This document shows positions 51,034-63,653 of a DNA stretch of 64,000 nt, in pieces. This DNA is from Escherichia phage BAU.Micro_ELP-22. The translations under genes and the position numbers were made by a program. Position 1 is the stretch's first letter, and each line of letters begins with the position of its first letter. Under the pieces are notes generated by a model. That model was not told the DNA's origin, searched no databases, and saw only the letters and a program-made list of their open reading frames with translations. The stretch lies in sequence record OR699282.2; one strand, 5' to 3'.

Positions 51034-51529
51034 TACTAATATCTGGTTAGATAACATAATCAAGACATTAGAATTAATTAAACTTACATTACAAAAAACT
51101 ACTGATATTGAAATTAAAATTAAACAAGAAATATTAAACTATTATCATAGAAACAAATATAGCACGTTTATCTCTAAATTAATTTATGGATTATATGATA
51201 TTGAAGATATTTGCATCGGTTACAGTACTGGTATTTGCTTCACAGTTAATGGTTTAAAAAATGATTTAAATTTCAGACTTTCCGATGAAGAGCAAGATTT
51301 TCGTAGATTTTGTGATAATATTATGGATACAGATAAAATTACATTTGTTATTGAATTAAATCAAACGTGGTCTACATATGCAGATAAACCATTTGAAATT
51401 AATGAAACAGATGTGTTAAACTATATTCGAGTTATGAAAATTCATGATTTGTGTAAAAACGCATTGTTAAGTATTGGAGCTTATAATGAAACATACGACT
51501 TGGTTGAAGATAGCAGAAGTAGTTGCTGA
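51005..51529 (+). CDS. hypothetical protein
   Basis: 174-aa ORF. Confidence 0.5.
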   Translation: MKYTHLSIDDTNIWLDNIIKTLELIKLTLQKTTDIEIKIKQEILNYYHRNKYSTFISKLIYGLYDIEDICIGYSTGICFTVNGLKNDLNFRLSDEEQDFRRFCDNIMDTDKITFVIELNQTWSTYADKPFEINETDVLNYIRVMKIHDLCKNALLSIGAYNETYDLVEDSRSSC

Positions 51530-51965
51530 GGAAAGTAAATGTATTTCACAAAAAGTTGGTTGTGTTATTGTTAAAAATAACCGAGTATTGAGTACTGGAT
51601 ACAATGGTACTCCATCAAAACAACCAAATTGTTGTGATGTGAATCAACACTTAGTCAATGATGGACGTTTTCAAGACTGGGTTAGTGATGAAGCAAAGCA
51701 TGAACATCATGAGTGGAGTAATATTCATGAAATCCATGCTGAAATGAACGCTTTACTCTATAGTTCTCCTGCTGAACGTCAAGGTGCTACTCTTTACACA
51801 ACACTACAACCATGTTATACTTGTTCTAAGTTGATCGCAGGTAGTGGGATTTCACGTGTAATTTATCTCAAAAATTATCCTCGTACACCACCAGAAGCTA
51901 TTAAAGTACTGGAAGATGCTGGAATTATTGTTAATTGCATTTATGATAAGGGTCTTGATAAATGA
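51486..51965 (+). CDS. cd: deoxycytidylate (dCMP) deaminase
   Basis: ESKCISQKVGCVIVKNNRVLSTGYNGTP, zinc ligand motifs HAEMNAL and PCYTCSKLI; closely parallels T4 Cd; ATG 51486 with GGAG RBS. Confidence 0.85.
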   Translation: MKHTTWLKIAEVVAEESKCISQKVGCVIVKNNRVLSTGYNGTPSKQPNCCDVNQHLVNDGRFQDWVSDEAKHEHHEWSNIHEIHAEMNALLYSSPAERQGATLYTTLQPCYTCSKLIAGSGISRVIYLKNYPRTPPEAIKVLEDAGIIVNCIYDKGLDK

Positions 51966-52219
51966 CAGTAATAATTATTATTGCTTTTCTAATAACAGTG
52001 TTTTTTATTTTTATGTTATATATAGTTGCTATGGATGAACCTAATACTTCTTTTCGAAATTATGAAGTTCGTTTTTCTGCACAAAATAATAAGTACTATA
52101 TTGTAAACTGTATACAGCGTAGTGAGAAAAGGGTAACAAGTAGATTTGGATTTACCATTTATTATAAAGACCGAGTAGAAGCTGATATGATTTGTCAGAA
52201 GCTTAATACTGTAGAATAA
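51962..52219 (+). CDS. small membrane protein
   Basis: 85 aa, N-terminal TM helix (IIIIAFLITVFFIFMLYIVAM). Confidence 0.5.
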   Translation: MTVIIIIAFLITVFFIFMLYIVAMDEPNTSFRNYEVRFSAQNNKYYIVNCIQRSEKRVTSRFGFTIYYKDRVEADMICQKLNTVE

Positions 52220-52246
52220 AAAAAGGAGCCGTATGGCTCCTTTTTT
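52217..52246. terminator. bidirectional rho-independent terminator
   Basis: A-run, GGAGCC-gtat-GGCTCC hairpin, T-run; sits between convergent + and - strand genes. Confidence 0.75.
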
Positions 52247-52247
52247 G

Positions 52248-52625
52248 TTAACCAGGGAGGTTACAATAATACAAATCCCAAGGGTGATATTTCATCGCAC
52301 CAGTACTCAATTTAATTTTATGAAACTGGAATGATTCGGCAAATGCACTATCGTCAATCTTAATACAAAAAGTGTTTTTGGCTAGAGTTGGTGCAATTTC
52401 CAATGCTGTTTTAGATGCATCTAATCTAATTTTATCTTTATCATAACTAGTGATAGTTACAAAACGATAAACATTAAAATCAGTATCAATGAGATCGTAA
52501 ACACAACTAGAACGTTGATTAAAGATGTTCAAGTTATATTTCAATTCACCGTTTATATTAGCTGCGGTTACACAAAACCCGCCGATATTGAATGGTAGTT
52601 TACCTTGTGCTGCGATAGCTTTCAT
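52248..52625 (-). CDS. hypothetical protein (only minus-strand gene in window)
   Basis: 125-aa ORF on - strand bounded by the bidirectional terminator. Confidence 0.5.
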   Translation of the reverse strand: MKAIAAQGKLPFNIGGFCVTAANINGELKYNLNIFNQRSSCVYDLIDTDFNVYRFVTITSYDKDKIRLDASKTALEIAPTLAKNTFCIKIDDSAFAESFQFHKIKLSTGAMKYHPWDLYYCNLPG

Positions 52626-52695
52626 ATTTTATTTCCTTTTTTAAATATAAGTATGAAATATATTTGTTTTTTACATCAGATGCACCATGAACTAG

Positions 52696-52724
52696 TTGAC
52701 AAAACATCAGTGGTATGATATGAT
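52696..52724 (+). promoter_or_regulatory. sigma70-like promoter
   Basis: TTGACA (52696-52701), 17-nt spacer, TGaTATGAT (52719-52724); TTAAGT(A/G) triple repeat follows at about 52770-52810. Confidence 0.5.
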
Positions 52725-52850
52725 CTGTTATAAACTGTACACCTTAAGTTTTATTTTTAAAAATTTGAGTTAAGTACAGAAAAAGTTTGACTTAAGTGTT
52801 TAAGTACTATATTATTTATATCTTCCTAAACAAAATTGAGGACTTGTTAT

Positions 52851-53459
52851 ATGAAAAGACTATGGCTTGAAGTGATACAAGCAGCGATGTTTCTATTGTT
52901 AATAAATTTTCCAGCCAGTGCTGGTATTGAAAGTAAAAATGTGATAAAGTATAATCCTGAAACCCGAAATGTATATTTCATATCAGATATTACAGATGGG
53001 TCGCTCAAGAGAATGATAGAGTTGTATGATAAAGAACACTATGATACCATCACAATTACATCTCCTGGTGGTGATTTTGATGCAGGTATTCGAATGGCAA
53101 ACTTTGTTAGAGACAATGGGATAAATTTAATTGTTTCTAGGTATTGCAATTCAGCATGTACTGTGGTATTCTTTAGTGTATCTCCCGAAAAGCGATATAT
53201 GACAAATCGCTCAGTACTGGGTCTTCATAACATTTCGATTAAAAGTAATGTTACTGATGGTGATAATTCATTTGTGTCTGTAAGACAGTTATCAACTTTT
53301 ACCGAAGAAATGGCAACAAAGGTAGGTTTCCTTTTTTCACTATATGCAGCAAATGGAATCCCACCAGAAGTACTATTTAGAGTTAGTCGTTCTCGTGGTG
53401 AAGATGTTGTAATATTAACAAAACCAGAACTGGTTTTTTACGGTTCAGTCAAACAATAA
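52851..53459 (+). CDS. secreted ClpP/S49-fold serine peptidase-like protein
   Basis: Signal peptide MKRLWLEVIQAAMFLLLINFPASAG; ITSPGGDFDAGIRMANFV and CNSACTVVFF resemble the ClpP SPGG and active-site Ser segments. Confidence 0.5.
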   Translation: MKRLWLEVIQAAMFLLLINFPASAGIESKNVIKYNPETRNVYFISDITDGSLKRMIELYDKEHYDTITITSPGGDFDAGIRMANFVRDNGINLIVSRYCNSACTVVFFSVSPEKRYMTNRSVLGLHNISIKSNVTDGDNSFVSVRQLSTFTEEMATKVGFLFSLYAANGIPPEVLFRVSRSRGEDVVILTKPELVFYGSVKQ

Positions 53460-53529
53460 AAATAATTAAAATAACAGGATGATTATGATGTACTTCCTTT
53501 GTTATTAATTATATTGAGATTATATAACT

Positions 53530-53790
53530 ATGACAAACATCCAAAACTTGACATCTATTATTTTTTATGCTACTGTAGTAATGTATGCTACAGTTATTTT
53601 TCTAACAGTTTTCATTTACAAAGATTATCGTAATGGCTTTATTGATCCAACTACAATGAAGTTCAATTCAAAATTCGAAGCAATAATTTATTATGTACTA
53701 TCAACTTCATACTTGGTGTGCCTAATGTTGTTAGGAGCACTAATTTATATCTTATACACAACATTATTTGCAATTGGAGCTATTTTATGA
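53530..53790 (+). CDS. small membrane protein
   Basis: 86 aa, two to three hydrophobic segments. Confidence 0.5.
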   Translation: MTNIQNLTSIIFYATVVMYATVIFLTVFIYKDYRNGFIDPTTMKFNSKFEAIIYYVLSTSYLVCLMLLGALIYILYTTLFAIGAIL

Positions 53791-54380
53791 CCTGTATTAT
53801 TGCACACACTGACGGAGTAAGTTCTTTTATTGCTGGGGATAAGTTAGGAAGCAATGGATTTACAAAAACTGTTCAAACTGAGCCAAAGGTATTCGAGAAA
53901 GAATTTATCAAGTTACATGATGATGGACTAACTAGAACTAAAGAAGTAATGGCATTGGGTTATACTACATCATTTCGTATGGGTCAGTTGTTAAATTATA
54001 ACCTTAATTTACCTGAACAAGATGCTAGTCAAACATTTTCACAATATTTGGTTCTTAAAGTTATTCCAATTATTCGTCAAATGTTTAAAGAAGAATGGGG
54101 TGCACGAGATGCATCACAAGATGTAGGTGGTGGACAATTTATCATTCTCCACAATCATACAATCTATGAAGTTCAAGAAGACTTTTCAGTACTACAACCT
54201 AAAACAAGAATTACCGCAGTAGGTAGTGGGACATATCATGCAATTGCAGCAATGCAAGCATATATTGAAGTTGAGAACGAATCTAAAAAACCACTACACG
54301 AACGTATCAAATCAATTTTTAAAATTGTTAGTGATAATGTAACAAGCGTAAGCGAAGAGTTTGATGTTTTAAAATATTAA
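53787..54380 (+). CDS. HslV/proteasome beta-like Ntn hydrolase
   Basis: ATG 53787 (ATGA overlap) gives M-TCIIAHTDGVSSFIAGDKLG resembling the HslV N-terminus TTIVSVRRNGHVVIAGDGQ with Thr nucleophile; ITAVGSGTYHAIAAM matches LIAIGSGGPYAQAAA. Confidence 0.6.
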   Translation: MTCIIAHTDGVSSFIAGDKLGSNGFTKTVQTEPKVFEKEFIKLHDDGLTRTKEVMALGYTTSFRMGQLLNYNLNLPEQDASQTFSQYLVLKVIPIIRQMFKEEWGARDASQDVGGGQFIILHNHTIYEVQEDFSVLQPKTRITAVGSGTYHAIAAMQAYIEVENESKKPLHERIKSIFKIVSDNVTSVSEEFDVLKY

Positions 54381-54407
54381 AAGTACTAATATTATAAGAG
54401 AGAATAG

Positions 54408-54602
54408 ATGATGGCATACACAATTTATGAATGGGTTTTGAGTTTTTTTATAGTTTTTTCTATTGTTGTAATTTATAACAATGCTAAATGCTTATATAGG
54501 GACTTGAAATCCAATGGTTATCACAAAGATAATAATTTTATGTATGCCTATCATATTGGAATCATTCTGTTATTATCAATATATTTAATTGTTTTTTTAT
54601 AA
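54408..54602 (+). CDS. small membrane protein
   Basis: 64 aa, two hydrophobic segments. Confidence 0.45.
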   Translation: MMAYTIYEWVLSFFIVFSIVVIYNNAKCLYRDLKSNGYHKDNNFMYAYHIGIILLLSIYLIVFL

Positions 54603-54611
54603 GGATTGAAT

Positions 54612-55364
54612 ATGATATCAGAAAAATTTATAAGCAATGAAGGTAAAAAGCGATTACTGATTATATCAGGTGCAGGACTTTCTGTTGAAAGTGGTATGGA
54701 ACCTTTTCGATTTGATGATGGTTTGTGGGATACATTTAAAATTAATGATGTATGTAACATTGCTAGTTTAACTACAAAATATCATGTTGTTCATTCTTTC
54801 TATAATACATTACGTGTAAAATTGGGACAATGCGAACCCAATGCAATGCATTATTTTATAAAATCGTTAGAAGATCAATATGGTGATTGCTTCCTTCATA
54901 TGACTTCTAACATGGATGATCTTTATACTCGTATCGGTGGTCATGAGCTTAAACTTCATGGAAACTTGTGCGAAGTTATTGAAAATTATAGTATCAATTC
55001 TGATGATTATAATGTTATTAACTGCGGATACGAACCATACATACCAAAACATGATGTTTTTGCTAAACCAAATGTAGTAATGATTGGAGAATATCATCGT
55101 TATGTTGATGGTATTCGCTTACCAATTTACGAAGAACGAAATAATGTGTTGAAATCTCTTAATGAAAATGATACAGTTATTGTAATTGGTAGTAGCGATA
55201 CAGTACTGGTGTGGTCGAGATTAGCAGCAGCATTGCCATGTTATAGTGTTAATGTTAACATTCGTAAAAATGATAATGATTTTTTGTTTAATGAAAAAGT
55301 TATCAAGCCAGCAACCAAAGCAATACCTCAACTAGAGACTATAATTAAGGAACGTATGAAATGA
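54612..55364 (+). CDS. Sir2-family NAD-dependent deacylase/ADP-ribosyltransferase-like protein
   Basis: LLIISGAGLSVESGMEPFRFDDGLW (NAD-binding GAGxSxxSGIxxFR), catalytic-His context ELKLHGN, VIVIGSSDTV; ATG 54612 with AAGGA RBS. Confidence 0.65.
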   Translation: MISEKFISNEGKKRLLIISGAGLSVESGMEPFRFDDGLWDTFKINDVCNIASLTTKYHVVHSFYNTLRVKLGQCEPNAMHYFIKSLEDQYGDCFLHMTSNMDDLYTRIGGHELKLHGNLCEVIENYSINSDDYNVINCGYEPYIPKHDVFAKPNVVMIGEYHRYVDGIRLPIYEERNNVLKSLNENDTVIVIGSSDTVLVWSRLAAALPCYSVNVNIRKNDNDFLFNEKVIKPATKAIPQLETIIKERMK

Positions 55365-55912
55365 GTGTTAAAGAAGTTCCCTTTGGTGAATATGGCACAC
55401 GTGCAAATTTTGTATTTTGCTATTTCTTTGCAAGAAAATGCAACCCTTACGAAAACTATGAGTTAAATGATATACCAGAAGTAAATCTGGTATTACTACA
55501 ATTACGATGGGATGGTCTTCTTGGTGGATGTGGTGGAACCGTAGAAAGTACTGATATCTCACTAGAAGATGCGTTGCGTCGTGAAGTTCAAGAAGAAATG
55601 GATTACAATATTTTTGTTTCCCATCTTCGACCACTCAAAACTTTTGAAATTTACCCAGGTGCAAACAGTCATAGTTTTAGCTATGAAGTGAGCTATGACG
55701 AGTTGAAACACATTAGAGATGGATACACTAATGCTAAACATGCAAGTGCAGAAGTGGCTGGTGTAAATTTATGTCATATTTCTCGTTATTCTAAGGGACA
55801 AAATCGAGAAGCGGGATATAATAATCTTATGACACAGAACTTCATCGGTACAGCAAAACAAGAATTGGAGTATCTGGTTCAAAAAGAAAACTTACTAATT
55901 AGTTATCTATAG
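55361..55912 (+). CDS. putative Nudix hydrolase (divergent Nudix box)
   Basis: GGCGGTVESTDISLEDALRREVQEEMDY resembles Gx5Ex7REUxEExGU but with a longer E-to-RE spacer. Confidence 0.45.
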   Translation: MSVKEVPFGEYGTRANFVFCYFFARKCNPYENYELNDIPEVNLVLLQLRWDGLLGGCGGTVESTDISLEDALRREVQEEMDYNIFVSHLRPLKTFEIYPGANSHSFSYEVSYDELKHIRDGYTNAKHASAEVAGVNLCHISRYSKGQNREAGYNNLMTQNFIGTAKQELEYLVQKENLLISYL

Positions 55913-55921
55913 GAGTTTAAC

Positions 55922-56242
55922 ATGTCTTACTCAATGTTTTTGGATGATATTCGTGATGCAAATCTATATTATCCAAACCAAGATATGGTGGTATGTCGTG
56001 ACTTTAAAAGTGCATGTGAATATGTTATTGAAAATGGAATTCCAGCATTTGTATCATTCGACCATGACTTGGGTGATGTGAGCGAAGACGAAAAGACTGG
56101 ATATTCTTTTGCTAAGTTTCTTATTGATTATATGTTTGATAATAATATTAAAGAACCGTTTGAGTACTTTGTTCACAGTAGTAATCCTGTTGGTAAAATT
56201 AATATTGAAACATACTTAAACAATGGATTTAACGCATTATGA
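55922..56242 (+). CDS. hypothetical protein
   Basis: 106-aa ORF with GGAG RBS. Confidence 0.55.
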   Translation: MSYSMFLDDIRDANLYYPNQDMVVCRDFKSACEYVIENGIPAFVSFDHDLGDVSEDEKTGYSFAKFLIDYMFDNNIKEPFEYFVHSSNPVGKINIETYLNNGFNAL

Positions 56243-56541
56243 TTCAAACACACATCAAAAGTCTTATTTGTACTGTTCTGTTAGGTGCAGGAGTTCTTTG
56301 GTTCGGACAGTATCACGAGAACACTAAGCGTACCAACATTCACTACAATACCGCAGAAGTTGTTAGTTTAGGACAATGTAGCGAGTCCAAATGTTCATTT
56401 ATGTATAAAACCCAAAATGGTGAAGTACGTAATGGACTATCAAGAGAACCAGTTTCAATTGGTCAACTTGTTTACCAGGAGTGCTGGGAAGAAAAGGTTC
56501 GAGGTTCACGTTGCTATGTTGAATACGAACCAAATATGTAA
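56239..56541 (+). CDS. hypothetical membrane-anchored protein
   Basis: 100 aa; N-terminal hydrophobic segment LICTVLLGAGVLWF. Confidence 0.5.
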   Translation: MIQTHIKSLICTVLLGAGVLWFGQYHENTKRTNIHYNTAEVVSLGQCSESKCSFMYKTQNGEVRNGLSREPVSIGQLVYQECWEEKVRGSRCYVEYEPNM

Positions 56542-56601
56542 TAATCCGAGTCAATAACATTAGTCGAGTACAAGGATGTACTCATAACTCAAGGATGTTT
56601 T

Positions 56602-58041
56602 ATGAAAAAATATACAATTGACACAAACGTACTACTATCTGACCCTAATGCATCTATTGCTTTTGATGGTGCTGCAATCATTCTACCATTTACAGTACTG
56701 GAAGAATTGGATTCAATTAAGAGTCGTAATGTAGATGTTTCACGCGATGCTCGTGTTGCTATTCGTAACATTGAAGCAATTATTGCAGATGCATCACATG
56801 ATGAGATTAGTAGTACTGGTGTTAATATTGCTGATGTTCATACCAATATGAATCCTGATAGCAAATTGTTTGTTATTACAAACGAAGAAGCTGAAGCACT
56901 AATTCGTACTAAAGGTTCAGAAGAGAAAGTTCAAACCCTTCTCAAAAGCACAGTACCTGATGATAAAATCATTCTGGTAGCTTTAGCAACAGAATCAGTA
57001 CTGGTAACTCGTGATATCAACATGCGTATCAAAGCACTAAGTTATGGTGTCGAGGTACAAGATTATCGCCATGATATTGTTATTGGTGATAGTGATTTGA
57101 TTCACATTGGTCAACACCATTTGGAAATTAATTTTTGGGAAGTATATAGCAACTTAACCAATACTAATATTCAATCCGAACAAGTTGGTCGTCGTTTGTA
57201 TCATTACATTTCTAAAAGCTTGATTGAACATTTGCTTCCACAAAATCTATGCATCGGTGATTATCTATATGATGATGCAGACGTATTATTTGTGTACGAA
57301 GGTCAATCAGCAATTGAGGAAGATGATGGAACACTAACACCAGAAGATATTTTGGTATTCCAAGATATTGGACAATCAGTAGCTTTACGTGCTAAAGTAT
57401 GGGATATTAAAGCAAAGAATATCCAACAAGCACTCGCCATCAACAGTATTCTCGATCCTGATGTACATCTAACAGTACTGCTAGGTTCTGCTGGTACTGG
57501 TAAAACACTAATTACGATTGCTACTGCATTAGAATTAGTACTGGAAAAACGTAAATACGACCGAATCATCTTCTCTAAAACTCAAGACTCACAGTTTGAA
57601 GATATTGGTTTCTTGCCAGGTTCAGAAGCAGAAAAAGTGATTCCATTCTGTGGAGCCGCAATTGACGCGTTAGAGTTTCTTCATAAAGATGATGCTAACC
57701 CACAAGGTAGTATTGAAGAGATTATGAAACGTAATGTTATTCAATTTAAAGCACTAAACTTTGTACGTGGACGTTCATTCACCAACACTATTCTAGTAGT
57801 TGATGAATTCCAAAACATTACACCTGCACAAGCCAAAACAATCTTGACACGAGCAGGATTAAACTGTAAAGTAGTAATTATGGGTAACTTGAGTCAGATT
57901 GACAGTAAGTTTATTAGTCCTGTTAACAGTGGTTTGACATATGTAACTGAGAAGTTTAAAGATTGGGCAGGTTGTCGTGTCATCGAACTAGAAGGTGTTG
58001 TTCGTTCACCACTTGCAGAATTTGCTGAAGAAAATATGTAA
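56602..58041 (+). CDS. phoH: PIN-domain / PhoH-like ATPase fusion protein
   Basis: N-terminal PIN-like YTIDTNVLLSDP...LEELD; C-terminal Walker A LLGSAGTGKTLITIA and Walker B-like ILVVDEFQN. Confidence 0.75.
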   Translation: MKKYTIDTNVLLSDPNASIAFDGAAIILPFTVLEELDSIKSRNVDVSRDARVAIRNIEAIIADASHDEISSTGVNIADVHTNMNPDSKLFVITNEEAEALIRTKGSEEKVQTLLKSTVPDDKIILVALATESVLVTRDINMRIKALSYGVEVQDYRHDIVIGDSDLIHIGQHHLEINFWEVYSNLTNTNIQSEQVGRRLYHYISKSLIEHLLPQNLCIGDYLYDDADVLFVYEGQSAIEEDDGTLTPEDILVFQDIGQSVALRAKVWDIKAKNIQQALAINSILDPDVHLTVLLGSAGTGKTLITIATALELVLEKRKYDRIIFSKTQDSQFEDIGFLPGSEAEKVIPFCGAAIDALEFLHKDDANPQGSIEEIMKRNVIQFKALNFVRGRSFTNTILVVDEFQNITPAQAKTILTRAGLNCKVVIMGNLSQIDSKFISPVNSGLTYVTEKFKDWAGCRVIELEGVVRSPLAEFAEENM

Positions 58042-58045
58042 TATT

Positions 58046-58078
58046 GTATGGGACATAATGTCCCATACATGATATAAT
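58046..58078 (+). promoter_or_regulatory. perfect palindrome overlapping extended -10 promoter
   Basis: GTATGGGACAT-a-ATGTCCCATAC (58046-58068), then TGaTATAAT (-10 hexamer 58073-58078); GGGACA sits at the -35 position. Confidence 0.5.
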
Positions 58079-58109
58079 GTTGTTATCATAATACAGAAGG
58101 AGATATAAA

Positions 58110-58307
58110 ATGGCTAAACAACCTAAGAAACAAGAACCAGTAGCAAAAGTTAAGAAAGAGAAAGTTATTCAATCTAAAGAACAACGTATGTACGAACAAC
58201 GTAAGAGTGAAACCCTATCCGGTCTACAAGCTCTACGCAAACAAGGTGTACTAACTCGTGCTCAATACCGTGAGATAGTAGCACAAAAAGGTTATTGGGG
58301 CATTTGA
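58110..58307 (+). CDS. small basic hypothetical protein
   Basis: 65 aa with AAGGAG RBS; lysine-rich. Confidence 0.55.
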   Translation: MAKQPKKQEPVAKVKKEKVIQSKEQRMYEQRKSETLSGLQALRKQGVLTRAQYREIVAQKGYWGI

Positions 58308-58401
58308 AGCAATAAACTGGAGTTCATGATAAATACTTTCATAAGAATAATAATACTTTTTATTAATTTAAAAAGAACTCCATGTGTTATTTCAGTTTTT
58401 C

Positions 58402-58429
58402 ATCCCTGTCTTTTGGCAGGGATTTTTTA
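58402..58429 (+). terminator. rho-independent terminator
   Basis: ATCCCTG-tcttttgg-CAGGGAT hairpin followed by TTTTTT. Confidence 0.7.
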
Positions 58430-58524
58430 TATCTATATCTTGACAAAAGGAACAAATCATGAGAACATGTATTAAAGGAAGAATGACTTTCCATTAGGTT
58501 ATTTTAACTTAAAGGAGATTTCAT

Positions 58525-59082
58525 ATGTTTTTTGACCAAACATTTACGTTGTATCACGATTCTGGTAAAGTTGAGATTATTGATAATCTGTTAGAGTACA
58601 TTGCGGAACATGACGGTATAGACCGTTTCCACAGTAAGATGAAATTCGATTTAGCTGAATTCAACAAAAAGAATCGTGAAACATTTTGGAAGAACCGTTT
58701 CTATTACGAAATGTTTCCAGAAAAGTTTGTGGGTTATTATCTTTGTACTGAAAAAGGATTACTTGTATCTCCTGATTTACTTATGGGTGAATACATGATA
58801 CTCTATAATGAGTACTGGGAACATAAACGTAAAGCTCGTGATACTGAATGGCGACATAAGCGTTCGTATATGTACAAACATAACCACTCACGATACAAGC
58901 GTCCTAAGACTCAACAAGAGCGTCGTATGGCTTGTGCAGTACTGAAGGATGAGGGGGAACCTGAAATACGTGGAAGACGTAAGATGCGTTCATTACCATC
59001 GTATTGGGACGATATCAGAACAAGACATAGTACTGGCTGGAAATACAGTACTAAACGTAAACATCAATACAAAGGGAGCTAA
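58525..59082 (+). CDS. hypothetical basic protein
   Basis: 185 aa with AAGGAG RBS; Arg/Lys-rich C-terminal half. Confidence 0.55.
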   Translation: MFFDQTFTLYHDSGKVEIIDNLLEYIAEHDGIDRFHSKMKFDLAEFNKKNRETFWKNRFYYEMFPEKFVGYYLCTEKGLLVSPDLLMGEYMILYNEYWEHKRKARDTEWRHKRSYMYKHNHSRYKRPKTQQERRMACAVLKDEGEPEIRGRRKMRSLPSYWDDIRTRHSTGWKYSTKRKHQYKGS

Positions 59083-59100
59083 TGCTCCCTAATTTTATAG

Positions 59101-59439
59101 GTGAACTTTATGAACAAAATTGACGTTACTGTAGTGATTGGTTATATTGAAATTGAACCGTGTGGCATTGATACCTTTATTGACACTCTTAATAAGTATC
59201 GTGCTGAATATAACGGTCCCATTAGTCTTTCACCAGACGGTGGTTACGGCGGGTTCGATGGATACAATGTAATTTGGACCAGAGAAGAAACTGACGAAGA
59301 ATATAATACACGAATTGAAGCTGAATCTAAAAGATGTGAAGAAATTGAACGTCAAGAAATGAAACACTTAATGAACAAGAAATCATTAAGTACCGAAGAG
59401 AAATCTAAACTGCTAAAATACATCAAGGATTACATGTAA
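59101..59439 (+). CDS. hypothetical protein
   Basis: GTG 59101 per track (ATG 59110 alternative). Confidence 0.5.
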   Translation: MNFMNKIDVTVVIGYIEIEPCGIDTFIDTLNKYRAEYNGPISLSPDGGYGGFDGYNVIWTREETDEEYNTRIEAESKRCEEIERQEMKHLMNKKSLSTEEKSKLLKYIKDYM

Positions 59440-60089
59440 TGAAAAATGTAACTCAAGAAAAGATTCTGTACCTTGCAAAGTACAATGGTGGTTTCAATAT
59501 CATTAGCCGTGAGTACAGTGGTAATTTGGCTAAGTTGATTGACAGTTTGTTAGAATTTGATTTCATTAAATGGGAAACTAATGAACTTTGGTACGAATAT
59601 GCTGGTCAGAAATGGGAAAGTGATTATGATAATGCAATACATTCATACACTATCACCAAAGCAGGTGAAGTTCGATTAGCCATTATGCGTTGTGCATATA
59701 CTTACAAAAATCATAAAGGTGAAGAAAAACATATTCGCAGAAATGAAGAGCTATTACTTCTCATGGAAGCAGCAAAAGTTACAATGCATGATTTGTTCCA
59801 CCACCCACGTTGGTATGAAAATCTAACAAAAGCAGAGTACAAAGCTTTACGTTACATTGATGAACAAAACAACAACCCAGTTGAAGTTGATGATGTTAGT
59901 GATGACGAACTAAGCCTCAAAAATGTATTTGAAAGTACCAGTACTGAAAGTATTACAGACATTTCTGTACAGATGGCACTAAAAGCAATGGAACTTTTCA
60001 AGACACAATATGAAGGACACAGTGCTGAAGAAGTAGAGCGTGAGTTCATTACACGCGTACAGATTGCATTGTTCCAATCGAAAAAGTAG
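59439..60089 (+). CDS. hypothetical protein
   Basis: 216-aa ORF. Confidence 0.55.
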   Translation: MKNVTQEKILYLAKYNGGFNIISREYSGNLAKLIDSLLEFDFIKWETNELWYEYAGQKWESDYDNAIHSYTITKAGEVRLAIMRCAYTYKNHKGEEKHIRRNEELLLLMEAAKVTMHDLFHHPRWYENLTKAEYKALRYIDEQNNNPVEVDDVSDDELSLKNVFESTSTESITDISVQMALKAMELFKTQYEGHSAEEVEREFITRVQIALFQSKK

Positions 60090-60293
60090 GATGATATGAA
60101 ATATGAACATCCGTGATGGGTTATCATATAAAGAAGCAGGTAAAGATGGTGTCAAAGTCTTTGCATTTGTGCACTTGACATGTTCGCTTTGTAATGCGAT
60201 AATATAAGTTCAGAAGAGATGGAACGTGAGTTCCTTACTTACATGAATGTTAAACTAGCCAAATGGCGTAAATCAATTCAATAGGTATTTTAA

Positions 60294-61265
60294 ATGAAAA
60301 CTAAAATTATTTCTGAACAAAAAATTGGCAATACTACAGTACTGAATCTTGAAGTTCAAGGTCTTAGTAATGTTCGTTCTCTTACGGTTTGTACTCAGAG
60401 AGATGATTTGACTGATTTCTATAGCTCAGAATACATGTCAGAAGAACCTTGGGATATGGGATGGTTGGACGGTAGTAGTTATATCAGTTCACGTTATAGT
60501 TTTGGTTCTCATGAAAATATTGAACAATTAAAAAATGAGTATATTAAACTCAGTGATACTATTGAAATGAAAGAAGAAGATTGTGTAGAACTTTTCATTT
60601 TTGAATTCGATGCCGGAAATGGTAATTCATTACTAGTAAGTAATATTGAAGAACATTTAATGTATCATGAAATTGAAGATGTAGATTTTGAAAGTATTAA
60701 AAATGTTGTTCATATGGTTGGTGGTAGTATTACTGATGATTCAGATATCGGTCATAATATTTCACTTTGCTTAATTTCTCATCCAAAAACTCGTGGTTTT
60801 AAAGTTCCACAAGATGAAACTTACGTGTCTGAAACTGCTGATGAAGGAATTTATCCTTGGAATGATTATGTAGAATACTATGGTCATTTCTGTTCTGATA
60901 CAAAAGAACTGAAAAAAGGCGAACAATATTTTGATATGTTCCGTGCTGCACAGCGTTTAGTACTGAATAATACTGAACTATTTCCTGATCGCGGCGAAGA
61001 AAATATGATTGATATTATCTTCAAGAACTATGATTATGTACAGAACATTCCTGATAATGTACATTTGGAATATGTTCACGGTTCTTCAAACAAATTCTAT
61101 AATATTGAATTGAATGCTCCAGTGTGTGAAGTAATTATTGAGTACGGTGCTATTGGTAAAACCAGTACTACTGATGGTGAAGAATTCGAAACTATTGAAG
61201 AAGCACGTAAGTTCTTCGAGAAGAAAGTAATTTCCAAAATTAAAAGTGGTTATAGCCCAAAATGA
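60294..61265 (+). CDS. hypothetical protein with C-terminal WGR-like domain
   Basis: C-terminal ~80 aa (YVHGSSNKFYNIELNAPVCEVIIEYGAIGKTSTTDGEEFETIEEARKFFEKKV) resembles the WGR domain of PARP-type proteins. Confidence 0.45.
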   Translation: MKTKIISEQKIGNTTVLNLEVQGLSNVRSLTVCTQRDDLTDFYSSEYMSEEPWDMGWLDGSSYISSRYSFGSHENIEQLKNEYIKLSDTIEMKEEDCVELFIFEFDAGNGNSLLVSNIEEHLMYHEIEDVDFESIKNVVHMVGGSITDDSDIGHNISLCLISHPKTRGFKVPQDETYVSETADEGIYPWNDYVEYYGHFCSDTKELKKGEQYFDMFRAAQRLVLNNTELFPDRGEENMIDIIFKNYDYVQNIPDNVHLEYVHGSSNKFYNIELNAPVCEVIIEYGAIGKTSTTDGEEFETIEEARKFFEKKVISKIKSGYSPK

Positions 61266-61642
61266 AAATCACACGCTTTGGTAAAACCTTTGAACTAAAC
61301 ATTGTTTCTGTTTATAAAAAAGGAAAATCAGGAAAGTTAAGCACTGATAATATTAGATTTGTTATTAGTGATTATTATGATATGTTTAATCAGGCATTTG
61401 AAGAAAATAAATTTGGTTTGATTTTATGTAAACCACAAAAACCGGAATTAGGTATTTTGGATTTAAGAACTGATAAGTCTGATTTTATTGGTAATCTTGA
61501 TATTATTGAATTTAAAGTTGATATATCAAAAGAACATTTTAGAGTTAAAAACTATAATTATTACAAAGTTGATATTAATTCTATCGAAGTACAAAACGTA
61601 CTTGATGAACTTATCAGTAATAATTCGTGTTTTACTAAATGA
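61262..61642 (+). CDS. hypothetical protein
   Basis: 126-aa ORF. Confidence 0.5.
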   Translation: MKITRFGKTFELNIVSVYKKGKSGKLSTDNIRFVISDYYDMFNQAFEENKFGLILCKPQKPELGILDLRTDKSDFIGNLDIIEFKVDISKEHFRVKNYNYYKVDINSIEVQNVLDELISNNSCFTK

Positions 61643-61887
61643 GAAAAAATATCATGAAAAATATATTCATTACATTAACAATATTTGTATCCATTATTCT
61701 CTGTGGTTGTGCTCCTAAAGTTGATGAGATGGATGCTGAAATCATCCGTCAAGGTTTAACAAAACTAAATCACCAAGGAACACTATACGCATGTCATACT
61801 ATGCGTCATGGACAAGATCTTAATCTCATGTGCAGGAAGATTGTGAATCGCAAACGTCTTAATACTGTTCCGAAGGATGCACAATGA
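61639..61887 (+). CDS. putative lipoprotein
   Basis: Hydrophobic leader then cysteines (IFITLTIFVSIILCGCAPK), lipobox-like. Confidence 0.45.
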   Translation: MRKNIMKNIFITLTIFVSIILCGCAPKVDEMDAEIIRQGLTKLNHQGTLYACHTMRHGQDLNLMCRKIVNRKRLNTVPKDAQ

Positions 61888-62053
61888 AAGAAGTAATTGG
61901 CTACAAATGTAAAAATTGTGGCAAAGATAAGGGTAAGCATTCAGTACAAGGAATGGCTTGCCCGAATCCAGGTCGTGGTAATTTCAGAGGGTTCAGTACT
62001 GAAAAGTCTTACGAGCCGGATCATACCAAACCTGTAATGGGTTATAAATTATG
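61884..62053 (+). CDS. small cysteine-rich (zinc-ribbon-like) protein
   Basis: 56-aa ORF below track cutoff (MKEVIGYKCKNCGK...MACPNPG), start/stop coupled on both sides. Confidence 0.35.
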
Positions 62054-62410
62054 AGTGATTATGTAGCATTTCTTCATCGCTTTGGAGAAGCTAAAGAAAA
62101 ACATATTATCCGTATGCCATTATATGGTGAAAAAGACTGGTACAAAAGTACTATCAGTGTAGGTGCATTTCGTGACCGTGAAGCTGGATTCTTTCTGGGT
62201 AAGAAACATGAACGAGAGGTACTTTGCTCACTGTGGCGTTTGGATGAATGGGATAGTGAGAACGTAAGAACTGCTGAATCAATGCTGGCTATTGTTGGTA
62301 TTGCGAACTATCAGCATCCATATGACCTATTACCTACATTTGAACATGCTTCTTTGTTTGACTTTTACAAAGCAGTAGGGTATGATTATAAAAAGAAACG
62401 TTACATTTAA
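62051..62410 (+). CDS. hypothetical protein
   Basis: 119-aa ORF. Confidence 0.5.
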   Translation: MSDYVAFLHRFGEAKEKHIIRMPLYGEKDWYKSTISVGAFRDREAGFFLGKKHEREVLCSLWRLDEWDSENVRTAESMLAIVGIANYQHPYDLLPTFEHASLFDFYKAVGYDYKKKRYI

Positions 62411-62455
62411 TATCAGTACTGTCATAATGGCAGTACTTTTTAATTGGAGATTACT

Positions 62456-63070
62456 ATGACTACATCGGAAAAGTACTGGTGGATTTTGGCTCATCCCAAA
62501 TTCATAAACAAAGATATGGTTCCAGCTAGGATTGATATAGAACCTCATGATGTGTGTCCAATGACAAATCGAATTGAAGATTTCAAAGCATTGAATACAA
62601 AGACTCAATTTTGGGTAGAATTTCTTTCACCAATGTATATTGAGCAAGACGACGAATGGGTACAAGCACATGATTATCAATTGGATTGTGGTGGTGATAC
62701 GTATGAAGAGGCGATTGAAAAATTATACAAAAATGTGCTAAACACATATGGTAATTACACCCAACAAGAAGCAGATAACACATTTAATAAGATCCATGCA
62801 TTCAAATCTACTCCATCAATTTTTAATCCCACTAAAACTGTTTGGGAGGAACGACACAGTTGGAGTTCATGTGTAATCGATGAAGAAACCAAAGAAAAAA
62901 TCATCGATGATATAAAAAATTTAAAAAATACGATAGAAGCCTTGCGTGAATTCATAATGTCTTGTACAATAGAACAACAGAAAGAGGCAAAGATACATTT
63001 GGAGAGTGAAGAATGTAAACTTTGGGTTCTAGAGAAATCTATTGAAAAGGGTATAGACTTAGACTTATGA
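62456..63070 (+). CDS. hypothetical protein
   Basis: ATG 62456 with GGAG RBS preferred over track start 62444. Confidence 0.5.
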   Translation: MTTSEKYWWILAHPKFINKDMVPARIDIEPHDVCPMTNRIEDFKALNTKTQFWVEFLSPMYIEQDDEWVQAHDYQLDCGGDTYEEAIEKLYKNVLNTYGNYTQQEADNTFNKIHAFKSTPSIFNPTKTVWEERHSWSSCVIDEETKEKIIDDIKNLKNTIEALREFIMSCTIEQQKEAKIHLESEECKLWVLEKSIEKGIDLDL

Positions 63071-63435
63071 ATAGTAAATTGGAGAAACTAATCGAAGAAT
63101 TACGCCAGATGCCACCTATTGAACAAGTAGGAAATTACAAACGGTATCGTGTTATTGCTCGTGCACTTGATAAAAAAGGTAGAGTACTGGCAACTCGCAC
63201 AAATTCTTATACACAGACTCACCCAGTACAGAAGGGTTTCGCCATTCGTGCTGGGCGACCGCAAGGTGAGTTTCTTCATGCTGAAATTTCATGTTTACTG
63301 GCTGCTCGTACTGATGTTCATACTTTACTGATTGCACGGATAAGTAAAGATGGAATTCCTGTTCCGGCTAAACCATGTGAAATTTGCTCATTAGCAATAA
63401 AAGAATATGGGGTGAAAGAGATTATCCACACATGA
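63067..63435 (+). CDS. small CDA-fold zinc-dependent deaminase-like protein
   Basis: Zinc-ligand signature HAE (FLHAEISCLLAA) and PCxxC (PAKPCEICSLAI) with spacing typical of the cytidine/dCMP deaminase fold; 122 aa. Confidence 0.55.
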   Translation: MNSKLEKLIEELRQMPPIEQVGNYKRYRVIARALDKKGRVLATRTNSYTQTHPVQKGFAIRAGRPQGEFLHAEISCLLAARTDVHTLLIARISKDGIPVPAKPCEICSLAIKEYGVKEIIHT

Positions 63436-63653
63436 AAATTGAAAGATATGCTAAGCATACTGTTGGGTGTGTAAATGATATATTCTATTATTATATTTTT
63501 GCACCTGAACTACGTTTTCAAATCACAACATACAATGATGGCAGATTTAAAGATACAAACTTCCTCATAACCGACTTAGCAAAGTATGCGAATACAGAAC
63601 ATTTTAATCATTTAGTATTTGTGTACTGTATACCAAACCCAAATAAAAAGTAG
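63432..63653 (+). CDS. hypothetical protein
   Basis: ATG 63432 overlapping upstream stop (ATGA). Confidence 0.45.
   Translation: MKIERYAKHTVGCVNDIFYYYIFAPELRFQITTYNDGRFKDTNFLITDLAKYANTEHFNHLVFVYCIPNPNKK

Follow-up and report, generated by a model that had tools for sequence, protein, structure and literature searches.

A predicted 122-residue zinc deaminase of an Escherichia jumbo phage represents a large phage family distinct from dCMP deaminase

dCMP deaminases convert dCMP to dUMP under allosteric control by dCTP and dTTP. They are also the best-scoring characterised relatives, as judged by profile comparison, of the small phage protein described here. In the helix-4 division of the deaminase fold, helix 4 is followed by a strand 5 that runs parallel to strand 4 (PMC3239186), and the helix-3 motif of TadA reads E-P-C-(l)-M-C (PMC3239186, Table 1). 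The 2011 census of the fold contains no phage clade of the type reported below (PMC3239186).

The 64-kb stretch of phage DNA analysed here (the window) carries a canonical dCMP deaminase gene (Cd; 51486..51965, + strand), whose product was recognised by its GYNG, HAEMN and QPCYTC motifs and its C-terminal extension. A second gene (63067..63435 including the stop codon, + strand) encodes a protein of only 122 aa that was identified as a minimal zinc deaminase of the cytidine deaminase (CDA) fold by its open reading frame, Pfam and an AlphaFold2 model. Escherichia phage JP4 matches the region at 99.8% identity, and phages PBECO4, 121Q, slurp01 and Sharanji match it at 92–99%. These relatives are Asteriusvirus jumbo myoviruses of ~350 kb, and the window likewise comes from an Asteriusvirus jumbo coliphage. 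The window differs from JP4 by an indel of ~1.4 kb located between Cd and the small deaminase gene (about 51965 to 63067), and its coordinates are accordingly offset from those of JP4 by 45620 at Cd and by 46999 at the small deaminase gene, which marks it as closely related to JP4 without being that phage.

The small deaminase gene and its product

The small deaminase gene sits within a long run of small genes on the same strand, and its reading frame overlaps those on both sides. The upstream gene (62444..63070, + strand) encodes 208 aa when read from a TTG codon, or 204 aa from the ATG codon used in 121Q, and its stop codon overlaps the deaminase start codon in an ATGA sequence. The product of this upstream gene matches phrog_16370 (2e-100) and has no Pfam match. 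At the other end, the deaminase stop codon forms a second ATGA overlap with the start codon of a 73-aa gene (63432..63653, + strand) that is annotated in JP4 and 121Q, and whose product has no Pfam or PHROG match. The 208-aa gene is found directly upstream of the deaminase only in Asteriusvirus, RaK2 and GAP32-like jumbo phages (neighbour cluster C9, 14 loci).

A hairpin that resembles a terminator is located between a 119-aa ORF and the 208-aa ORF (62415..62437, + strand). It has a perfect 10-bp stem, AGTACTGTCA-TAA-TGGCAGTACT, followed by the T-run TTTTAATT. The hairpin is a pattern match from a consensus scan in which terminator-like sites were no more common than in shuffled sequence, and it is plausibly an intrinsic terminator or an RNA-processing site in front of the three-gene unit containing the deaminase, where it may mark the boundary of a transcription unit. 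We do not claim a promoter, because the number of promoter-like sites in the same type of scan equals the expectation from shuffled sequence. The neighbour at 62051-62410 has no informative annotation in Pfam or PHROG.

Farther upstream are Cd and genes for ClpP/HslV-like proteases, Sir2, Nudix, PhoH and a WGR-domain protein, and the genes for NrdD and NrdG lie ~2.5 kb downstream of the small deaminase, past the end of the window. The Sir2-like NAD-dependent deacylase, Nudix hydrolase, PhoH-like (479 aa) and WGR-domain (323 aa) genes occupy 54606-58041 and 60294-61265. Their names are taken from the annotations of related phages, and the set may serve in the handling of NAD or of nucleotide signals, or in counter-defence.

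The 122-aa protein has a predicted mass of 13.7 kDa and a predicted pI of 9.67. Superfamily membership was judged by the Pfam gathering cut-off together with the zinc and catalytic motifs [HC]xE ... PCxxC. The protein scores 29.3 bits against PF00383 (dCMP_cyt_deam_1), for which the cut-off is 25, and both motifs are present. Its AlphaFold2 model (pLDDT 92.9) adopts the cytidine deaminase fold, with the elements in the order α1-β1-β2-(extra helix)-α2-β3-α3-β4, and residue 122, the last, lies at strand 4. The three-layer α/β/α architecture is present in the model, and helices 2 and 3 each carry one of the two motifs at the N-terminus.

The first motif, H71-A72-E73 (63277..63285, + strand), begins helix 2 and provides a His zinc ligand together with the catalytic Glu, both of which are invariant in 160 family members. 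The second, PCEIC (P103-C104-E-I-C107; 63373..63387, + strand), begins helix 3 and supplies two Cys zinc ligands; its Pro and both Cys residues are likewise invariant. Directly before P103 is K102, which gives the 'AKPC' sequence typical of the family. Two other conserved features lie outside the zinc site. One is the segment N46-S-Y-T-Q-T-H52-P53-V-Q55 (63202..63231, + strand), which corresponds to the family consensus N-S-Y-x-K-T-H-P-x-Q. The other is R91 (63337..63339, + strand), an Arg that ends strand 3 and is nearly invariant, being present in 157 of 160 family members and having no exception in alignments A1, A2 and A4.

The motifs and the model together show that the ORF should encode a stand-alone CDA-fold zinc deaminase whose catalytic site is intact. 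The residues H71, C104 and C107 would hold a zinc-bound water and E73 would shuttle protons. Because the H, E, C and C residues are invariant, we can safely infer the chemistry itself, namely hydrolytic deamination of a base, in which an exocyclic amino group would be removed (C to U, or A to I). An earlier note on this DNA had called attention to a 122-aa ORF with HAE and PCxxC in deaminase spacing. Both motifs are confirmed (residues 71-73 and 103-107), and the profile search that it proposed places them within a deaminase fold.

A family distinct from dCMP deaminase, TadA and tetrameric CDA

When the small protein alone was compared with the sequences of the PDB, nothing meaningful was returned; a family profile was needed to reach deaminases, and it finds the S-TIM5 dCD at 2.3e-6. 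Likewise, alignment of the family with phage Cd by hhalign yields 98% and 2.9e-13. The small family shares with T4 Cd, cyanophage S-TIM5 dCD and ComEB the PF00383 domain, the H-x-E ... P-C-x-x-C zinc site and a G-x-N motif in strand 2. Furthermore, both Cd and the small family are borne by phages, and both are sometimes located near ribonucleotide reductase (RNR) genes.

Despite this affinity, several hallmarks of dCMP deaminases are missing. The Asn of HAExN is present in all 77 canonical phage Cd proteins from control loci but in 0 of 277 members of the small family, where the corresponding residue is A, S, H, D, R or Q (S75 in the window protein). The residue before PC is Lys in 202 of the 277 members, whereas canonical Cd proteins mostly have Ser. 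As judged from models of the window protein and the longer relative P0045, the small family also lacks the helix 4, the parallel strand 5 and the C-terminal segment of dCMP deaminases. In contrast, the extra helix and the THPxQ motif are features of the small family relative to dCMP deaminases, and R91 has no counterpart in the canonical enzymes.

The NCBIfam ComEB model (TIGR02571) gives no match to the small protein at E≤1; the canonical Cd of the window is also below the cut-off of this model (71.9 bits versus 219). We rejected a dCMP deaminase identity on the basis of the absent HAExN Asn, the absent helix 4 and C-terminal segment and the failure to match ComEB. The earlier note had described the gene as a second deaminase in addition to Cd. 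This phage does encode two deaminases, but the smaller one belongs to a separate large phage family and is not a shortened paralogue of Cd.

The relationship to TadA was evaluated in the same manner. TadA has E-PC at the position where the window protein has K102-P-C-E-I-C, and Glu precedes PC in just 6 of 277 family members. TadA and ADAT2 also use helix 4 and C-terminal helices to bind the anticodon loop, and these are absent from the window protein and P0045 models. The small deaminase does have the HAE-I-x-A-L motif in common with TadA, as well as an element of the form H-(D)-P. A TadA identity was rejected since E-P-C and the C-terminal tRNA-binding helices are lacking and since the NCBIfam TadA model (NF008113) gives no match at E≤1.

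Tetrameric CDAs and blasticidin-S deaminases (BSD) differ from the small deaminase in using Cys rather than His as the zinc ligand. Their PCxxCR motif is also absent, with the second Cys being followed by S108 in the window protein and by Q, E or S in the family. The TIGR01354 model for tetrameric CDA gives 13.8 bits, far under its cut-off of 113.65, and on these three grounds a CDA or BSD identity was rejected. An antiparallel β4-β5 hairpin of the CDA/BSD type is seen in the model of the extended member P0045, where the two strands are joined by a turn and no helix 4 is present, while the window protein has no strand 5. More generally, the C-terminus of family members is either a simple β4-β5 hairpin or, as in the window protein, ends right after strand 4.

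The complete family signature is G-x-N46-S-Y-x-K-T-H52-P53-x-Q55, [YF]-L-H-A-E-I-x-A-L, R91, G96, A-K-P-C-x-I-C and [YH]-T. Conservation among the 160 members is 157 for N46, 151 each for H52 and P53, and 141 for Q55. A profile search of 1.84 billion cluster representatives returned 4350 matches at E≤1e-3 and 1027 at E≤1e-10, and the family thereby comprises more than 1000 clusters at 50% identity, nearly all from phages. Typical members are about 100-135 aa long; the matched proteins are nearly all stand-alone and 96-166 aa in length, and no domain fusion was found among the longest members. Homologues occur in RaK2, GAP32, Erwinia jumbo phages, phiKZ (PHIKZ260), Aeromonas phages, cyanomyoviruses, Cobetia phage Carin-5 and Limnohabitans phage DC31.

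A scan of IMG/VR with back-translated patterns yielded 151 confirmed family loci in viral contigs, and a similar scan of 185,579 prokaryotic genomes (one per species) yielded only 2 short MAG contigs; both scans are indicative rather than exhaustive because the patterns are narrow. These data show that the small deaminase is a member of a large family, distinct from dCMP deaminase, TadA and tetrameric CDA, that is found almost only in phages.

Our search of the literature retrieved no study of the function of the family or of PHIKZ260. For the PHIKZ260 gene, a primary start of transcription has been mapped early in infection (PMC8244752). The ORF itself and a generic deaminase domain annotation are already public. 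In the literature searched, we did not find a separate phage family, its minimal C-terminus with a His ligand, its own signature, its basic charge, its coexistence with Cd or its enrichment near tRNA genes.

Coexistence with Cd, charge and gene neighbourhood

A canonical Cd gene is located within ~10 kb of a small-family gene in four lineages, which are the window phage, Limnohabitans phage DC31, L042 and L076. The clearest case of coexistence is DC31 (L011 4992-6037; PQ492658.1), a 76-kb Pakpunavirus-like phage whose small deaminase gene precedes Cd by two genes within one operon; ThyX is encoded a few kb farther downstream. Since canonical Cd is found this close in four lineages, the small deaminase is not redundant with Cd.

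The two types of protein also differ in charge. Members of the small family (n=279) have a median pI of 9.67 and a median net charge of +9, and 98% of them exceed pI 8.5. Canonical phage Cd proteins (n=80) have a median pI of 6.5, and the Cd of the window has a pI of 6.6. Small neighbouring ORFs have a median pI of 7.1, but roughly one in four is very basic too, so that charge by itself is a weak argument. Conserved basic residues of the family map to the loops that follow strands 2 and 3 and to the position directly preceding PCxxC, and the charge would suit the binding of a polyanion.

Genes for nucleotide metabolism and for tRNAs both recur near the family, and only the latter separate it from Cd. 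RNR genes are present in the same locus in 8 of 33 family lineages and in 7 of 39 Cd loci, and the RNR-linked genes near family loci encode NrdA/B, NrdD/G and glutaredoxin. When lineages were collapsed at 70% identity and compared with Cd controls from the same collection with the same flanks, a tRNA gene was found within 1 kb in 8 of 33 family lineages versus 0 of 39 canonical Cd loci (Fisher p=0.0012), and within 3 kb in 13 of 33 versus 2 of 39 (Fisher p=0.0004), the metagenome-derived lineages in this comparison being not fully independent. A conservative permutation of tRNA proximity within each locus gave a combined p of 0.067, which is not significant, and the tRNA claim therefore rests on the comparison with Cd loci. 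The association involves only about a quarter of the lineages.

Many metagenomic phage contigs have the deaminase gene inside or next to the tRNA cluster, and several individual loci illustrate this arrangement. The gene is wedged among tRNA genes in L037, L066, L057, L064 and L078, with tRNA-Pro and tRNA-Cys as its flanks in the first two and tRNA-Ile(UAU) as an immediate neighbour in L057 and L064. A series of 13 tRNA genes precedes it in L008, and in L068 (541-8404; IMGVR_UViG_3300012933_000323, 205 kb) it is located 1.6 kb downstream of 28 tRNA genes and a tmRNA gene contained within 8 kb. Members that are adjacent to tRNA genes share up to 48-51% identity with the window protein. In contrast, the 64-kb window has no tRNA gene, and the tRNA cluster of Sharanji is ~195 kb from its small deaminase gene. 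tRNAs with A at position 34 are not enriched near family genes (7 of 185, versus 2 of 62 in control loci).

Some features of these loci were observed in passing. The L068 tRNA set includes a putative suppressor-type tRNA(CUA). A well-formed class-II tRNA-Ser(ACU), with A at position 34, occurs in three unrelated phage groups that carry the deaminase, namely Asteriusvirus Sharanji (L178 17471-17562; Sharanji record 95470-95561), the L045 group (L045 9112-9201) and a 225-kb freshwater phage contig (L005 13899-13988), and the sister contigs L037 and L066 have a homologous tRNA-Ser with the usual GCU anticodon. The 225-kb contig has nine tRNA genes and encodes, 3.5 kb from the deaminase, a PP-loop ATPase (Pfam ATP_bind_3, TilS family; L005 11805-12428), which is possibly another tRNA-modification gene near the small deaminase. 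At other loci (L038, L051, L069, L032 and L028-L031), a conserved block encoding ATP-grasp, phiEco32-like COOH-NH2 ligase, Amidoligase_2 and class-I and class-II glutamine amidotransferase proteins lies ~1-6 kb from the deaminase gene.

Candidate substrates and current annotation

The earlier note had also suggested that the second deaminase acts on a substrate different from that of Cd. Indirect support for this suggestion comes from the missing dCMP deaminase features, the coexistence with Cd, the charge and the gene neighbourhood. Our best guess, which is held tentatively, is that the small deaminase acts on bases in a polynucleotide, most likely tRNA or other RNA, and not on free dCMP. We favour this reading because of the positive charge, the open and shortened C-terminus, the failed dCMP deaminase signature, the coexistence with Cd and the linkage to tRNA genes. 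The phage would use the enzyme early in infection on host or phage RNA, separately from the supply of dUMP by Cd.

Several observations speak against an RNA substrate. These include the tRNA-free window, the absence of A34 enrichment, the lack of TadA-type tRNA-binding helices and the p value of 0.067 from within-locus permutation. To these can be added that dCMP deaminases are the nearest relatives by profile, that linkage to RNR is like that of Cd and that the DC31 gene shares an operon with Cd. A more specific proposal, that the family comprises unrecognised polynucleotide-editing deaminases of phages, ~100-120 aa in size, that act on tRNA, for instance at an A or C in the anticodon loop of a host or phage tRNA such as the unusual tRNA-Ser(ACU) of phages, is rather unlikely.

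It is also possible that the protein deaminates a free nucleotide or nucleoside, working as a compact homo-oligomer like tetrameric CDA on a pyrimidine other than the substrate of Cd. Candidates include dCTP, CMP or CTP, (deoxy)cytidine and modified dCMP, and the role of such an enzyme would be to channel cytosine nucleotides towards dUMP and dTTP for an AT-rich genome. We regard this as nearly as likely because of the affinity to dCMP deaminases, which top the profile searches, the conserved sugar-binding Asn and the RNR, Cd and ThyX neighbourhoods. Specifically, the strand-2 residue N46, whose equivalent holds the sugar in other deaminases, is retained in 157 of 160 members; RNR genes are about as frequent as at Cd loci, with NrdD and NrdG close downstream here; and in DC31 the gene pair lies near ThyX. 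In addition, Foldseek ranks highest the tetrameric cytidine deaminases and blasticidin-S deaminases, which are of similarly small size, and a 5′-phosphate could be bound by conserved Arg and Lys residues close to the pocket.

Weighing against a free nucleotide substrate, however, the HAExN Asn that all Cd controls possess is missing, as is everything after strand 4. The family is uniformly very basic and is enriched near tRNA genes, both unlike Cd. Moreover, the host already has Dcd, Cdd and CodA, and with these and the phage Cd at hand the added value of another such enzyme is not evident.

An improbable alternative is that the protein deaminates single- or double-stranded DNA, and that it damages or mutates host or competing DNA, or disables a defence, in the manner of small bacterial toxin deaminases. 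Weak structural matches to DddB, DddA and SsdA are consistent with this idea, and some family members reach or approach the cut-off of the Pfam MafB19-deam model. The window protein, in contrast, scores 12.3 bits against the cut-off of 27 for that model, which gives an ordinary Cd 56.7 bits, and it matches no other toxin-clade Pfam model at E≤10. Its gene-order partners with overlapping ORFs are kept within one group of jumbo phages and not throughout the family, and an unrestrained enzyme would also harm the phage's own DNA.

The setting of the gene differs from that of toxin deaminases as well (MafB19, YwqJ, SCP1.201/DddA, BURPS668_1122 and Pput_2613). It is a stand-alone phage gene in an operon of phage early type, and the family has neither the secretion domains nor a family-wide immunity-like partner that would be expected of polymorphic-toxin deaminases. 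Membership in a toxin-deaminase clade was rejected given the lack of a significant match and of a delivery or immunity context.

Least probable is some other role. The protein might deaminate a signalling nucleotide, a cofactor or a modified base, for instance within amidoligase or amidotransferase pathways, or it might serve mainly as a partner subunit of another protein such as the 208-aa neighbour. At least three lineages have an adjoining ATP-grasp, COOH-NH2 ligase, Amidoligase_2 and GATase cluster, and the frame overlaps both of its neighbours in the window. These neighbours, however, vary from lineage to lineage, in contrast to the family-wide deaminase signature and catalytic residues, and the invariant H, E, C and C favour catalysis over a structural role.

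The finding is important only if polynucleotide editing, the reading we favour, proves true. Editing of tRNA or another nucleic acid would add an RNA-editing layer to the takeover of translation by large phages, and would explain why a deaminase gene recurs inside phage tRNA clusters. By editing tRNA, large phages could reprogramme decoding or escape host defences that target tRNA. The proteins would then be among the smallest natural nucleic-acid deaminases known, and a naturally occurring catalytic unit of 100-120 aa, more compact than TadA and the APOBECs, could be of practical use in base editing. If the protein instead acts on free nucleotides, it would represent a new type of minimal nucleotide deaminase, one that combines a hairpin-type C-terminus with a His zinc ligand and operates in parallel with Cd in the pyrimidine metabolism of the phage.

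The labels in current databases are unreliable for these genes, since records differ in naming a single gene 'dCMP deaminase', 'cytidine deaminase', 'TadA' or 'hypothetical'. Phages in which the small deaminase homologue is labelled 'dCMP deaminase' include 121Q and JP4, and those in which it is a 'hypothetical protein' include PBECO4 and Sharanji (gp468). The Sharanji record and the paper on this phage give the Cd homologue gp491 (WNN14772.1; L181 4357-4836) as a 'tRNA-specific adenosine deaminase' and as a translation factor (PMC11895373). This label looks wrong, because the equivalent protein of the window matches ComEB/dCMP deaminase profiles.
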